From a virus (Duplodnaviria; Heunggongvirae; Uroviricota; Caudoviricetes): DNA of 48,730 bases. The stretch is from IMG/VR virus record IMGVR_UViG_3300012346_000137, positions 1 through 48,730 of that record; one strand, given 5' to 3'. Shown in pieces: positions 1,970 through 28,533 of this stretch. Every line of letters begins with the position of its first letter. Within the stretch, counting starts at the first letter, position 1. The notes beneath the pieces were generated by a model, which worked only from the letters and a program-made list of their open reading frames with translations, was not told the origin of the DNA and did not search any database. Made by a program: the position numbers and the translations under genes.

Positions 1970-3027
1970 GTTTTGATCAATTAAGAAAAGCTGTACAAGA
2001 TGGTCTCGATGGTAGAAACACTGGTATTCCTATGGGATTCAATAGATTGAATAAATACATAGGTATACGTAAGGGTATTTACACATTGGTGGGTGGTTTG
2101 ACAGGTTCAGGTAAGACCAGCTTTGTGGATGATGCATATGTGCTCAATCCATTTGATTGGTTTATCAAACAGAAAGACCCTAAGCTAAAGCTAAAGATCA
2201 TCTATCGCTCTATGGAGCGTAGTAGAACCTACAAGCTTGCTAAATGGACTTCTAGAAAGATATTCCTAGATCATGGTGTAATCATCAATGTAAGTAAGTT
2301 ATTAGGTTGGACAGAGAGAATGACTCCAGACGAGCACGATTTGTTCCTAATGTACGAAGATTATATTGGTGAGATGAACGAAGTGATGACAATCATCGAT
2401 GGTCCTGATAATCCTGTAGGTATAGCTAAACAAATCAAAACGCATGCTGAACAACATGGTGTGATTGAACAGCTTGATCAGTATAACAAAGTGTACATTC
2501 CTAACGACAGTAATGAAGTGACTATTGTTATTGTGGATCATGCTGGTTTGTTAAAGCTTACCAAAGACCTACCTACTAAAAAGCAGGTGATTGATAAAAT
2601 GTCAGACGAATTGAGATATGCTCGTGACTTCTATGGATACACTCCTGTAGTTGTGAGTCAGTTCAATCGTGACATATCAAATGCAATGAGACTTAAAGCT
2701 GGTGATGTTGAACCTAGATTGGAAGATTTCAAAGAGTCAGCATCAACCCAGGAAGACGCTGACGTGGTCTTAGCATTATTTGATCCTTCAAGATATAATG
2801 TAAAAGATCCCTCAGGTTATGATTTAGATAAACTAAAAGATGAGTTTGGAGCTAAGTACTTCAGAAGCTTGAGACTAATTAAGAATTCTTATGGTGAAGA
2901 TGATGTAAGAATTGGACTTGGTTTCTTAGGTTCTGTAGGTATGTTCAAGGAGCTACCAAAACGAGCTCAGATGACTGATGATGTCTATGATGATGTTATC
3001 AACAAGTCATTCTTTATAAACAAATAA
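1966..3027 (+). CDS. dnaB: DnaB-like replicative helicase
   Basis: Walker A GLTGSGKT, Walker B IVIVDH, VVVSQFNR, QEDADVV. Confidence 0.9.
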   Translation: MSFDQLRKAVQDGLDGRNTGIPMGFNRLNKYIGIRKGIYTLVGGLTGSGKTSFVDDAYVLNPFDWFIKQKDPKLKLKIIYRSMERSRTYKLAKWTSRKIFLDHGVIINVSKLLGWTERMTPDEHDLFLMYEDYIGEMNEVMTIIDGPDNPVGIAKQIKTHAEQHGVIEQLDQYNKVYIPNDSNEVTIVIVDHAGLLKLTKDLPTKKQVIDKMSDELRYARDFYGYTPVVVSQFNRDISNAMRLKAGDVEPRLEDFKESASTQEDADVVLALFDPSRYNVKDPSGYDLDKLKDEFGAKYFRSLRLIKNSYGEDDVRIGLGFLGSVGMFKELPKRAQMTDDVYDDVINKSFFINK

Positions 3028-3028
3028 T

Positions 3029-3211
3029 ATGAAAATTAAAGCACATTGGAGTAACACATTGCCAACAAGTAAAGATTACTGGTGGCAGATAGTATTATTA
3101 CCAACAATTAGTATTTTTAGAAGAATTGATGCTGAATCTTATGCAGCAATCAACTTCGAATGGTTATTTTGGTCATTCACAATAACAGTAGAATATGGCA
3201 TCCCTGCGTGA
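3029..3211 (+). CDS. Hypothetical hydrophobic protein
   Basis: Fills gap between helicases, aromatic-rich. Confidence 0.55.
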   Translation: MKIKAHWSNTLPTSKDYWWQIVLLPTISIFRRIDAESYAAINFEWLFWSFTITVEYGIPA

Positions 3212-4277
3212 TCAAAGACAGAAACATTTTGCTGATATTTGGATGAATAATGGTAAGTTTGGTATCCTCAACTTATGTCCTAGATTTGGTAAGATTTATA
3301 CCACAATCAACATATTAGAGAAACTACCAAAGAATATCAACATACTTATAGCCTATCCTGATTTAAAGATTAAACAATCTTGGGAAGATGATTTTAAGGC
3401 TAGAAAGTATAAGAATCCAAACATCACATACACTACACATTTGTCTCTTAAAAAACATGTAGATAGTCAGTTTGATTTAATAGTTCTTGATGAGATACAC
3501 TTGCTGTCTGAAGCACAATTACAAGTTGTGTCAGAAATGCTTGATACCCATAAACATGTATTAGGTCTTACTGGTACACTTTCTAGCTGGACAGAAAGAA
3601 CATTAAATGAAGAATTAGGTTTACCTGTCATAGCTCATTATCCAATTGAGAAAGCTATTGAAGAAGGTGTTATTACAGACTATCAAATCACTGTGCTTAC
3701 GACCCCTCTTGATAATGTTGTCACTCGTAACTATAAAGGTAAGTGGAAGACTGAGAAGAAACAGTTTGATGCTTATGGTTGGGTGATAGATCAGATGGAG
3801 AGACAAGGTAAGAGCACAATGTTCTTAAGACTTGCTAGAATGCGTATCATCCAGAACAGTCTGGCTAAACTTAACTTAACTAAGAAGATTTTAACTAACT
3901 TCAAGGATGAGAGAATTCTAGTGTTTTGTGGAGTGACAGCAATAGCTGATGAATTAGGTATCCCTGTCTATCACTCTAAAGCAGGAGATAAACAAGTGTT
4001 TGAAGATTTCGCTGCAGGTAAAGGTAATCACCTTGCTGTAGTGAAGATTGGAAACACTGGTGTGACATACAAACCTCTTAATCGTGTGATTATCAACTAC
4101 TTTGACAGTAATGGAGAGAATCTAGCACAAAAGATTAATAGGTGCATGGCTATGGAATATAACAATCCAGAGAAGAAAGCCAACATTTATATTATTTGTT
4201 CAACAGAGGATGTGGAGAAGAAATGGCTGCAGAAAGCATTAGAATTCTTCGATCCTAACAAAATCACTTACAAATGA
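3195..4277 (+). CDS. Superfamily 2 helicase-like protein
   Basis: Walker A-like CPRFGK, DEIH, LGLTGT, motif VI-like QKINRCMA. Confidence 0.8.
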   Translation: MASLRDQRQKHFADIWMNNGKFGILNLCPRFGKIYTTINILEKLPKNINILIAYPDLKIKQSWEDDFKARKYKNPNITYTTHLSLKKHVDSQFDLIVLDEIHLLSEAQLQVVSEMLDTHKHVLGLTGTLSSWTERTLNEELGLPVIAHYPIEKAIEEGVITDYQITVLTTPLDNVVTRNYKGKWKTEKKQFDAYGWVIDQMERQGKSTMFLRLARMRIIQNSLAKLNLTKKILTNFKDERILVFCGVTAIADELGIPVYHSKAGDKQVFEDFAAGKGNHLAVVKIGNTGVTYKPLNRVIINYFDSNGENLAQKINRCMAMEYNNPEKKANIYIICSTEDVEKKWLQKALEFFDPNKITYK

Positions 4278-25793: not shown

Positions 25794-26210
25794 TTACTTA
25801 GATTTACGCTTTGCAGCTATTTTTTTAAATGTTTTTGCTAATGTTTTAGCCTTACCTGTACAACCTTTCTTAGTGATTGGTGTACATTTACCTTCTGTAC
25901 CACGCTTCTTGATGGAAGCTGCAGCTTTCTGCATCCATTTACCATCCTTAGCCTTACCACCATTTTTCATATTAGACAACTTCTTCAAGTCTATAGGATC
26001 AATGTCTTTAGCTCTTGTAGAATCAGAAGGATTGTTCTTGATATTAAACAAGTTTCTATTTCTTGCTGAACTTTCAGTAGGACTAGTAGTCTTATAATAT
26101 CTAGGACCATCTGGTGTATTAGTTTTGGTAACTACATTATAGCCTTTAGCATCTTTGTAGACACTTTCACCATATTGGGCTTTCTTGATTTTCTTTTTAA
26201 TCGCTGCCAT
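25794..26210 (-). CDS. Lys-rich protein
   Basis: KAQYG, MKNGG, KAKDG motifs. Confidence 0.75.
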   Translation of the reverse strand: MAAIKKKIKKAQYGESVYKDAKGYNVVTKTNTPDGPRYYKTTSPTESSARNRNLFNIKNNPSDSTRAKDIDPIDLKKLSNMKNGGKAKDGKWMQKAAASIKKRGTEGKCTPITKKGCTGKAKTLAKTFKKIAAKRKSK

Positions 26211-26575
26211 TATTTCTTCTTTTTAGAAACTTTAGCACCAGATTTAGCTTTACCAATAGTTCTTTCTTGAACTTTAGTCCAAGCACCTTTAGGATCTACC
26301 ATACCAGCTTTCTTTGATTTTGCACCAACACCAGCTGCTAATTCTTTTTTAACCTTGCCACCATTTTTTAATCCTAACTTATTTTTAACTGCAGCACCTG
26401 TTTCTTTTATTTTTTTGACGATATTAATATCTTTTTGTTTTGGATTATCCCTTTCTGTGGCTCCTCCAAAAGTAGATACATATTTACCTACAGCTTTTAC
26501 AGCGTCCATTCCTGTTTTTTTCTTAGTTGAAGTACCAGATTGTGCCTTTTTGATAGGCTTTTTAATAGTTGCCAT
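26210..26575 (-). CDS. Lys-rich protein
   Basis: KAQSG, LKNGG, KAKSG motifs. Confidence 0.75.
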   Translation of the reverse strand: MATIKKPIKKAQSGTSTKKKTGMDAVKAVGKYVSTFGGATERDNPKQKDINIVKKIKETGAAVKNKLGLKNGGKVKKELAAGVGAKSKKAGMVDPKGAWTKVQERTIGKAKSGAKVSKKKK

Positions 26576-26580
26576 TATTT

Positions 26581-26730
26581 TTATTTTTTAGATTTTGATT
26601 TAATCTTTTTCTCTTGTTTTAACATAGCAGCTGTAGGTTTCTTTCCAGATCCTTTGTTAGCTCTGATGTTATCCCACAAACCACGTTGTGAAACACTACC
26701 ATCTTTACGTTTAATCATTTGTTTTGCCAT
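26581..26730 (-). CDS. 49-aa basic protein (not in ORF track)
   Basis: MAKQMIKRKDGSVSQRGLWDNIRANKGSGKKPTAAMLKQEKKIKSKSKK. Confidence 0.7.
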   Translation of the reverse strand: MAKQMIKRKDGSVSQRGLWDNIRANKGSGKKPTAAMLKQEKKIKSKSKK

Positions 26731-26731
26731 G

Positions 26732-26752
26732 TTAACAATTCCATTTACGAAG
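26732..26752 (-). repeat. Displaced, synonymously different copy of the last six codons plus stop of the 27182..27544 gene
   Basis: CTT CGT AAA TGG AAT TGT TAA versus TTA AGA AAA TGG AAC TGC TAA (27182-27202); both read LRKWNC*. Confidence 0.85.
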
Positions 26753-26756
26753 TTAA

Positions 26757-27194
26757 TTAATCAAATACATCAAATTCTTGATTGACATATTCATTATATT
26801 CTTTAATATCATCTGATTCTAAACTATTAGCTAGAAGATATATCCTAGCAAACTCTAAAAGATCAGGATCATCTCTAAAGTGACCAAGTCCTTTATTACA
26901 GTGATTGCAGAGCATTCCTCTTATTGTGTTTGTTTTGTGACAGTGATCTACAACTAAGTCTTCTTCTGAACCACAAATTACACATTCCTTAACAGTTTCT
27001 ATAATTTCTTTTAAGTCTTTATCAGAAATCATAGATCTATACAATCCTCTTCTTGTTTCACTTCTGTAAGAAGCTCTACATTCTTTGCACCAACTATCAA
27101 AACCAGACTTAGTTTTGTTATGTAAAGGAAAATACTCTTTAGTAAGAGGCTTTTCAACAGCACATTTGGTACATTTTTTATTTAGCAGTTCCAT
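26757..27194 (-). mobile_element. Free-standing Endonuclease VII-type HNH homing endonuclease gene
   Basis: CTKC...CKEC Zn finger, CVIC..VDHCH..RGMLCNHCNKGLGHF.D; flanked by the duplicated host-gene end. Confidence 0.85.
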
Positions 27195-27544
27195 TTTCTT
27201 AAAGCTAATGCTTTTCTAGTAGGTTTACCATTAGGTTTCTTCATAGGTCCTTCTACTCCTGACATACGAGCACAAAAGCTTTTTCTTCTTTTAGCGTCCT
27301 TAGAACCAGGTTTAAGCTTTGAAGGCTTAGTTGTAACAGCAGTTTTTAGTTTAGAACCTGGGTTAGCTCTTCTATAAGAAGCTACACCTTTAGCATTAAG
27401 ACCACCTGATTCAGATTTGCCTTCTTTTCTTTGCCAAGCTGGAGATACTTTACCACCTTCTTTAAGAGTAGAGCCTTTAAACTCTCCTTTCTTTTTAATC
27501 AAAGGACCATTTGGAACCTTTGTAGGTTTTTTTACTGTTGCCAT
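27182..27544 (-). CDS. DUF6321-like basic protein
   Basis: PAWQRKEGKSESGGLNAKG, RRKSFCARM, ALRKWNC. Confidence 0.75.
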   Translation of the reverse strand: MATVKKPTKVPNGPLIKKKGEFKGSTLKEGGKVSPAWQRKEGKSESGGLNAKGVASYRRANPGSKLKTAVTTKPSKLKPGSKDAKRRKSFCARMSGVEGPMKKPNGKPTRKALALRKWNC

Positions 27545-27822
27545 TATAAGCTATTTTTAGGAGCATCATTTGCCTCCTTAGCTATTCCAGTTTCTACAGC
27601 CTTAGCCAAAACATGTTCTACAAGATCTGATGCTTGAGCAGCTTGGAACAAAGCCTGTGCTTCTGGAGTGCTTAAGATAGCACGAAATGCGTTTAATATT
27701 ACACCAAATTCAGTTCCTGATAATTCAAATTTATCGTCCTTGCTCCAAATGTATTTCTTTGTAGGATCGAATGTAATTGTTTCAGGAGTTTCTGCGTGAA
27801 AATCTTTTATTTCTTCTGACAT
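27544..27822 (-). CDS. Hypothetical protein
   Basis: First gene after promoter; TAATG-coupled to next gene. Confidence 0.7.
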   Translation of the reverse strand: MSEEIKDFHAETPETITFDPTKKYIWSKDDKFELSGTEFGVILNAFRAILSTPEAQALFQAAQASDLVEHVLAKAVETGIAKEANDAPKNSL

Positions 27823-27840
27823 AATTTATGGTTTTAAGAC

Positions 27841-27872
27841 CAAAGATATGTATTTTTCTAATATCTACCAAA
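27841..27872 (-). promoter_or_regulatory. Bacteroidota-type promoter
   Basis: TTTG-N20-TATCTTTG on minus strand. Confidence 0.7.
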
Positions 27873-27873
27873 T

Positions 27874-28533
27874 TTATTTTAGCTCTGATTTGTACACCTG
27901 TCTGATGTTCCACAGATGACGATAGTTTCCTCCAGAGTGATCTCCTAGATAAGCCATACTTCCATGTTGACCATTCTTTTTTCCTCTACCAATTAATGTG
28001 TTATCAATTACCTGACAAAACACTTCGTTAATCATCATTAATGCCCCCTTACAATTCTCTGTAGAATAATCAAATGCTTTTCCTAATGCACCTGGACCTG
28101 TACAATCTACAGGATGTACACCATAATGTTTTGATTTACAATTACTTACTATAATATCAATAGCTTTTTTCAAATTCTTATTACCTGGTGGAGCATAAAA
28201 CATGCTGCAGGAAACATATCTATCTATTGTGTCTTTAAAAAATATTGGTTTACCATCAACATACTTATCTATACCAGGAAGAATAGAAAAACTAACATCT
28301 AAATACCATCCACCATGAATATATATAATTGCAAACTTAGCTAAGTCTGCTTTAAACGAGTATGGGATTAGTTCATCATAAGCCCAGATTACATCTGGTT
28401 CAAAGTTATTCTCTAGTAGTTCTCTTACATCAGCGTCATTCCACAGCCTATGTTCATAATTAGCTTTTACTTTTTCTATCTTATCAAGTGCTACTGGAGA
28501 TGGGTTGTTGGTTATATATACTTGGTGTATCAT
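27874..28533 (-). CDS. GT32 glycosyltransferase
   Basis: MIHQVY, KADLAKFAIIYIHGGWYLDV, CTGP. Confidence 0.85.
   Translation of the reverse strand: MIHQVYITNNPSPVALDKIEKVKANYEHRLWNDADVRELLENNFEPDVIWAYDELIPYSFKADLAKFAIIYIHGGWYLDVSFSILPGIDKYVDGKPIFFKDTIDRYVSCSMFYAPPGNKNLKKAIDIIVSNCKSKHYGVHPVDCTGPGALGKAFDYSTENCKGALMMINEVFCQVIDNTLIGRGKKNGQHGSMAYLGDHSGGNYRHLWNIRQVYKSELK

Follow-up and report, generated by a model that had tools for sequence, protein, structure and literature searches.

Why should the last codons of a phage gene be present twice, once in front of and once behind a gene encoding an endonuclease? This question is raised by a locus in the window (the whole stretch of 48,730 nucleotides analyzed here), which comes from an uncultured phage and makes up the initial 48.7 kb of an IMG/VR virus record that is 112.7 kb long and has an estimated completeness of 98%. 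Our comparison of this locus with related ones makes it very probable that a DHHRN-type free-standing homing endonuclease invaded a gene of the DUF6321 family by break-induced gene conversion, swapping the tail of the encoded protein.

Organization of the DUF6321 locus

All genes in this part of the window lie on the minus strand. The DUF6321 gene (27544..27182, minus strand; Pfam PF19846, E = 3e-23) encodes a 120 amino acid protein and is a hybrid, with a native-like middle part and a donor-like stretch of about 105 nt at its end. It terminates in TTA AGA AAA TGG AAC TGC TAA (27202..27182), the upstream copy of the repeat. The following ORF, here called EndoVII (27194..26757, minus strand; PF02945, E = 9e-16), encodes a 145 amino acid protein; its ATG is located inside the AAA TGG of the Lys-Trp codons of the DUF6321 end, resulting in a 13-nt overlap, and its stop codon occupies 26759..26757. 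Downstream of a TTAA (26753..26756, minus strand), the second copy of the repeat, CTT CGT AAA TGG AAT TGT TAA (26752..26732, minus strand), is continuous with P49, a 49 amino acid gene (26730..26581, minus strand) that adjoins DUF6321 directly in nuclease-free relatives; 1 nt (C) separates this copy from the P49 ATG. Based on the alignment with the related locus L195, which reads ATT AAT AAA TCA in the corresponding region, the TTAA is probably part of a decayed native tail.

Both 21-mers encode LRKWNC followed by a stop codon; the 6 nt at which they disagree are spread over four codons and change no amino acid. The initial annotation had reported the two LRKWNC ends, the nuclease start inside the first of them, and the 4-nt and 1-nt spacings, and each of these details proved exact. 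A six-frame translation of the window contains LRKWNC-stop in these two places only. A repeated terminal heptapeptide within 600 nt, anywhere in the window, was obtained in 6 of 200 codon-block shuffles; given the comparative data presented below, a chance origin of the repeat is irrelevant.

The 112.7-kb record contains one DUF6321 match and one Endonuclease_7 (PF02945) match. No Rfam intron was detected at E <= 1 in positions 26000-28000, and the scan around the nuclease gene returned two chance microRNA-like matches only, in agreement with the intron-less invasion that had been proposed. The nuclease gene is therefore free-standing, located between DUF6321 and P49 with no intron match. A megablast search with 20 kb of the window against GenBank phages gave no match, and blastn against the same phages gave short DUF6321 matches only.

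The nuclease is related to the DHHRN homing endonuclease family

The EndoVII protein matches PHROG 2633, annotated as 'endonuclease VII' (E = 3e-29), and among proteins of solved structure its sole relative in sequence is Hpy99I, a restriction enzyme, matched in its nuclease domain (E = 1e-6). Aligned with residues 143-195 of Hpy99I, the protein shows conservation of D-H-x-H, R and CN..LG. The catalytic D83, H84, H86, R92 and N100 are all intact, the zinc cysteines C71/C74/C96/C99 are accompanied by a second, N-terminal Cys4 cluster, and the Endo VII motif spans residues 56-120 of 145, that is, the C-terminal half of the protein. Judged by these residues and by the PF02945 match, which is above the cut-off, the nuclease carries the Endo VII catalytic motif (D, H, H, R, N) together with the zinc site of the DHHRN family.

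The founding member of this family of homing endonucleases is F-CphI of cyanophage S-PM2; Fang et al. defined the family around it by these same features, and their tree places Hpy99I and the homing enzymes apart from resolvases (PMC6083498). Compared by description, the nuclease of the window resembles F-CphI in being encoded by a free-standing phage gene, in having the Endo VII motif in its C-terminal half, in possessing the D, H, H, R and N residues plus the zinc cysteines, and perhaps in belonging with Hpy99I-like enzymes rather than with resolvases. The two differ in their location: the target of F-CphI is psbA, beside a group I intron, and the nuclease described here is found at the end of DUF6321, where there is no intron.

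Uninvaded alleles of the DUF6321 gene

A search of IMG/VR with the DUF6321 protein yielded approximately 600 loci, of which 80 were fetched and examined. At three loci (L195, L194 and L060), CTT CGT AAA TGG AAT TGT TAA T ATG GCA AA(A/G) ends an intact DUF6321 gene with no nuclease, and the downstream 21-nt copy of the window is identical at 21/21 positions to these true gene ends. The empty allele that the initial annotation had predicted is thus seen in all three, with a T in the spacer where the window has a C, and the native end was indeed pushed downstream, as it had proposed. In L060, whose DUF6321 ends in ...CTT CGT AAA TGG AAT TGT TAA T ATG GCA AAG, P49 is joined directly to DUF6321 (97% identity in protein, ~92% in nt), and the identity with the window sets in precisely with the first codon, CTT, of the downstream copy, extending through P49. 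L060 was rejected as a comparator for the whole locus, being close in the leftover and P49 only and not in its DUF6321 or upstream genes, and it was replaced by L195. The latter is a near relative of the window (88.6% nt identity in P92, 91% in P49 and 84-93% in further blocks), and its nuclease-free DUF6321 ends in ...AGA ATT AAT AAA TCA CTT CGT AAA TGG AAT TGT TAA T ATG GCA AAA.

An exact junction pattern with a fixed 1-nt spacer matched the L060 contig only, and a relaxed pattern was used instead. With a DUF6321 stop codon followed by P49 within 0-15 nt, 28 IMG/VR loci were found, among which one (the L092 contig) contains a nuclease and 27 do not. Moreover, four related genomes (114-122 kb, 99-100% complete) contain no PF02945 gene, which argues against an essential resolvase. 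At this site the nuclease is therefore polymorphic, with some related genomes having it and others not.

The L060 contig (G005), which has the uninvaded junction, contains two other Endonuclease_7 genes (contig positions 67078-67317 and 53876-54109; L060 2399-2752); one of the two, whose product is 32% identical to the nuclease of the window, lies ~400 nt downstream of P49. It seems that different members of the Endonuclease_7 family occupy neighboring sites in the same gene array. In L040 (3240-3390), ...AAA TGG AAC TGT TAA is followed by a P49-like sequence, AAAGAAAAGACGGATCT, that lacks the ATG and first codons, which suggests a small deletion at the same DUF6321-P49 junction.

The DUF6321 gene is a hybrid with a swapped C-terminal tail

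To locate the boundaries of the foreign DNA, we performed a three-way comparison in which L195 served as recipient proxy and L084 and L086 as donor proxies (98% and 93% aa identity in the nuclease, respectively). Read along the gene strand, the window is L195-like down to 27298, L084/L086-like from 27286 to 26760, and L195-like again from 26759. A blastn comparison with L195 aligned 27462..27257 (85% identity), gave no alignment for 27256..26760 and resumed at 26759; as the L195 similarity resumes there, the leftover is probably about 28-30 nt long, and not only 21.

At or above 27298, 22 informative sites are shared with L195 only and 5 with both donors only, whereas from 27286 to the stop codon the counts are 0 and 37 (Fisher's exact test on the two blocks, p = 1e-12). 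Together with blastn, these sites define a native-like, that is, L195-like, DUF6321 core at 27298..27462 (minus strand). The last L195-type site is 27298 and the unbroken run of donor-type sites begins at 27286, which places the left crossover in 27287..27297, ~30 nt ahead of the point where the FCARMSG motif ends. The informative sites likewise delimit the donor-derived 3' part of the gene (27182..27286, minus strand), which comprises ...KSFCARMSG and the tail down to LRKWNC-stop. In the last 118 nt of DUF6321, the window has 91.5% nt identity to L084 and L086, dropping to about 59-60% further upstream.

The tail itself is a 24-residue segment, VEGPMKKPNGKPTRKALALRKWNC (type A), which is inserted in frame with DUF6321 and has no counterpart in L195, where the gene ends in MKKKLTSAKTANDPNSRINKSLRKWNC (type B). 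Compared with L195, the window has lost 56 nt of native tail and kept the last ~28-30 nt. The whole C-terminal tail was swapped, and this is not a synonymous recoding of six codons; flanking DUF6321 sequence (27286-27182) was co-converted with the nuclease gene. The initial annotation was right that a gene end of its own came in with the element, since the donor-type tract 27286-27182 is joined to the nuclease. Its description of that end as a recoded copy did not hold: the end is a different 24-residue tail, in a donor tract that begins ~105 nt before the stop codon.

L195 is not collinear with the window further upstream, having a 220 amino acid ORF between P92 and DUF6321 that is absent there in the window. 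The N-terminal module of DUF6321 also differs between the two, and more than one rearrangement consequently separates these genomes. The start of the DUF6321 gene in the window, ~34 codons long (MATVKKPTKVPNGPLIKKKGEFKGSTLKEGGKV; 27443-27547, minus strand), has 81% nt identity to the reverse complement of L195 12334-12438, which is the start of another gene, the next one after P49. The MATxKK N-terminal modules common to this array of small basic genes seem to have been shuffled by recombination.

The nuclease family recurs at DUF6321 stop codons

Homologues with at least 53% identity to the nuclease (range 53-98% aa) were found at 22 loci. In 19 of the 21 assessable close homologues (L084-L098, L102-L104 and L049), the nuclease start lies inside the last DUF6321 codons, as an ATG in most loci and as a GTG where the DUF6321 Lys codon is AAG, and this position is kept even where DUF6321 is only 37-48% identical to that of the window. 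The remaining three loci are L099 and L101, in which the nuclease is upstream of DUF6321, and one that is cut by the contig end. In L099 and L101 (about 2496-3160), the nuclease homologue is 64% identical and directly precedes a DUF6321-like gene with no stop codon after ...AWNC, which continues as a longer protein.

The intact tails linked to a nuclease are of three kinds, namely A, B' (GHKKKNTSA...INKAL) and C, and never B. No nucleotide in the last 48 nt or in the FCARM region separates nuclease-linked from nuclease-free alleles; TTA AGA AAA TGG AAY TGY TAA, the upstream type of end, is common in nuclease-free alleles (L018, L062, L013 and L021). Past the DUF6321 stop codon, nuclease-free alleles have no conserved sequence in common.

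Native-tail remnants behind the nuclease

Leftovers of a DUF6321 end are also found behind the nuclease in related loci, with different lengths. The longest, of 27-31 codons, read (MSG)MKKKLTSAKTANDPNSRINKSLRKWKC followed by a stop codon and form mini-ORFs that correspond to a type-B DUF6321 tail (L090 2918-3004; L092 ~3005-3090; L096 ~3180-3275; L102 ~2908-2995). Shorter ones of 9-10 codons are present in the window and in L085 (NKSLRKWKC-stop), and of 4-7 codons in L084, L086 and L093. L084 and L093 retain KWKC-stop, which is fused to the nuclease in L093, and in L086 the nuclease stop codon lies inside the CTT CGT AAA of the remnant. L049, L091 and L103 have no remnant. Every typable remnant is of type B, and the long ones all start at the FCARMSG/tail boundary and differ from one another mostly at synonymous sites.

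The loci with long type-B remnants encode nucleases ~55-82% identical to that of the window, behind three intact tail types. Either every invasion restores the 27-31-codon mini-ORF, or selection acts on it directly. The junction from the nuclease end to the remnant is collinear in the window and L085 over 37 nt, and the genes downstream differ; contigs near-identical to the window extend through the remnant before they end or diverge. Supported by the L085 collinearity, the type-B remnants behind three tail types, the synonymous differences and the contigs, it is conceivable, at somewhat less than even chances, that the native-tail leftover is more than debris and travels with the nuclease as a portable right-hand homology arm. 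The cassette of substitute tail, nuclease and remnant would then have target-gene sequence on either side and could home into DUF6321 genes irrespective of their downstream neighbors, exchanging one tail type (A, B, B' or C) for another.

Evidence of mobility from related loci and metagenome contigs

The nucleases of the window and L084 are 98% identical in aa and 93.6% in nt, and the flanks of L084 consist of genes that are unrelated to those of the window or ~53% identical in protein (P92, 53% aa). Between these two nucleases, 25 nt differences fall in synonymous and 4 in non-synonymous codon pairs, so that the protein is under purifying selection.

Three metagenome studies provided Logan contigs that match the window, with 5-10 differences, over 26724-27291, 26768-27316 and 26723-27287. 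Two of these contigs end at the cassette boundaries (26723/4 and 27287/91), and the third spans 26768-27316. Another contig, from run X1, covers P49 and the leftover as far as 26753; beyond this point it reads AGC AGA ATT AAT AAA TC on the gene strand, which is how an uninvaded allele reads in its type-B tail. Other contigs, whose type-A tail resembles that of the window by at least 90%, diverge exactly at the stop codon (27182) and are therefore without nuclease.

One contig run may be the sample of origin, so that the contigs count as supporting evidence only, and parts of the window without contig cover are uninformative. Of the words sampled from 26400-27700, no public sequencing run contained more than one third, so that none of the runs could be shown to hold the entire phage. 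A joint in run X3 that 'skips 546' was set aside as proof and is taken as a hint, its shorter side being only 26 letters long with unidentified letters between.

A model of homing by tail replacement, and its alternatives

We propose that the invading gene encoded an Endo VII-motif (DHHRN, F-CphI-like) homing endonuclease and that its source was another phage. The enzyme would cut uninvaded DUF6321 alleles, most likely those of type B near the FCARMSG/tail boundary. The block copied at repair would comprise ~30 nt of DUF6321 before the FCARMSG end, the alternative 24-residue tail including a stop codon, and the ORF of the nuclease. The left crossover would have occurred in a stretch (27287-27297) whose sequence donor and recipient have in common; at the right end, the copy would have been connected to what remained of the recipient's type-B tail, its final ~28-30 nt, with the loss of 56 nt. 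As the homology on this right-hand side amounts to ~21-30 nt, short-homology recombination and end joining are candidate routes. The type-B piece would then stay as an untranslated leftover abutting P49, with DUF6321 intact except for its swapped tail, and the nuclease, starting inside the K-W codons, would probably be translated by coupling or re-initiation. Either the swapped tail or the insertion itself may remove the cleavage site. The direction of the event (a gain here, or a loss in L195) we infer from the leftover and the mosaic.

This model is limited by two observations already described: type-A tails at least 90% like that of the window also occur without the nuclease, and no nucleotide of the last 48 nt or the FCARM region separates the two classes of alleles. 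A cleavage site at the FCARMSG/tail boundary of type-B alleles must be weighed against a second location, the stop-codon junction of type-A alleles. There, the nuclease gene would simply be inserted right after the TAA and would split its own site, and the window would represent a rarer, ectopic conversion of a type-B recipient via FCARMSG. The constant position of the nuclease start relative to the DUF6321 stop codon, with three tail types, would be expected from such a site, and so would the divergence of nuclease-free type-A alleles from the window exactly at 27182. However, the lack of conservation past the stop codon in nuclease-free alleles would leave a site spanning this junction without a conserved half, and the long remnants, all of which begin at the FCARMSG/tail boundary, fit a break at that boundary. 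We regard a home site at the type-A stop junction as a possibility of roughly one in a few, of similar weight to a site at the FCARMSG/tail boundary.

The initial annotation had assigned immunity to the synonymously recoded last six codons, which would make the invaded allele resistant to its own nuclease. The two 21-mers do differ at synonymous positions only, and the fact that typable remnants are all type B and nuclease-linked tails never are indicates that some difference between the carried and the native end may matter. Against the codons themselves speak the nuclease-free alleles cited above (L018, L062, L013 and L021) and nuclease-free contigs ending at the stop codon, all of which carry the upstream-type codons; the synonymous differences are on this account ordinary allelic divergence. 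Nor is there any fixed nucleotide difference between the allele classes in the regions compared. Resistance through recoding is consequently unlikely, and if the occupied allele is immune, we infer that a different tail or a split FCARMSG/tail-boundary site is likelier to be the cause than codon changes.

Two further explanations dispense with homing. EndoVII could be the phage's own Holliday-junction resolvase (an analogue of gp49) and a stable core gene, with the duplicated end as a by-product of rearrangement among paralogous small basic genes; this is very improbable, for while EndoVII is the sole PF02945 gene of the genome and its neighborhood is a shuffled array of Lys-rich genes with common N-terminal modules, the gene is absent from the four complete relatives and L195, occurs as a near-identical block in unrelated flanks, and encodes a protein whose C-terminal-half motif and best solved relative, Hpy99I, are as in the 'endonuclease clade' of PMC6083498. 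Also very improbable is that the copies are a transposon-like target-site duplication or the decayed remains of another DUF6321 paralogue that lay in tandem: direct repeats do flank the 450-nt insert, but they differ at 6/21 nt and represent different haplotypes (donor and native), there is neither a transposase nor inverted repeats, the genome has a single DUF6321 match, and L195 has one DUF6321 gene abutting P49.

Comparison with known systems

Homing that replaces a gene end has been described for the gene hybrids created by mobile endonuclease ORFs (mORFs) in fungal mitochondria, which include atp6 of Allomyces macrogynus and atp6, atp9, cox2 and nad3 of Glomus sp. (PMC3630166), as well as Rhizopus atp9 and Mortierella cox2 (as summarised in PMC3630166). 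In these hybrids, it is the native part that agrees with close relatives, the inserted part being the divergent one (PMC3630166). The locus of the window has the same layout, with a foreign in-frame C-terminal piece followed by an endonuclease ORF and then the native C-terminus, and its native piece is likewise closer to relatives than the inserted tail. There are nevertheless clear differences: the host is a phage and not an organelle; the enzyme has an Endo VII motif and is neither LAGLIDADG nor GIY-YIG; the nuclease ORF is not fused in frame and instead has its start codon within the final codons of the substitute tail; only ~21-30 nt of the native end are left here (27-31 codons in some related loci); and the nuclease family recurs with three tail types. 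By analogy, the element would work like the mORF class without being a member of it by descent.

Intronless homing with co-conversion of flanks is known from T4-type free-standing homing endonucleases such as SegB, SegF, SegG and MobE (PMC2988022, PMC2330249, PMC2790892), and several T4 ORFs of this kind overlap the end of the upstream gene (segF by 11 bp, segC by 20 bp and mobA by 23 bp; PMC2988022). The nuclease gene of the window resembles them in its location between genes, its overlap with the upstream gene end, its patchy distribution and the co-conversion of its upstream flank. Unlike the Endo VII-motif nuclease, the T4-type enzymes are GIY-YIG or HNH proteins, and the T4 review (PMC2988022) does not mention a duplicated or replaced gene end. 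No phage example of a foreign C-terminus followed by an endonuclease ORF and a native C-terminus was found in the literature searched, a weak absence since subscription journals lay mostly outside this search. The mechanism class is known from fungal mitochondria; the phage host and the Endo VII nuclease family are new.

The window and L195 provide a clean before-and-after pair, with mapped crossovers, for homing in a phage in which a coding gene has part of its sequence replaced and the insertion is not simply made between genes. In addition, the little-studied DHHRN family would gain a second, well-populated natural target, with dozens of occupied and hundreds of empty alleles as material for defining the recognition site.

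DUF6321 in other phages

DUF6321 is widespread in aquatic phages, and homing would drive the exchange of whole C-terminal tail types in this family. The invariant ...RKW(N/K)C end before the stop codon and the FCARMSG motif mark the parts of the protein that are most strongly constrained.

In the cultured podophages L001-L003 (Pelagibacter phages Eistla, HTVC131P and HTVC119P), a DUF6321 protein of 78-81 aa is encoded between the scaffold and capsid genes, and it is preceded by a basic gene of 45-49 aa that resembles P49 (GLYANI...KRxxxKAG). This arrangement hints that DUF6321 and P49-like proteins work together and may be virion-associated. Finally, the DUF6321 region of the window (27182-27544) also matches the C-terminal ~90 residues of larger families in PHROGs, namely phrog_10346 (525 aa), phrog_3477 (928 aa) and phrog_727 (450 aa), which indicates that the DUF6321 domain is also used as a C-terminal module of big proteins.
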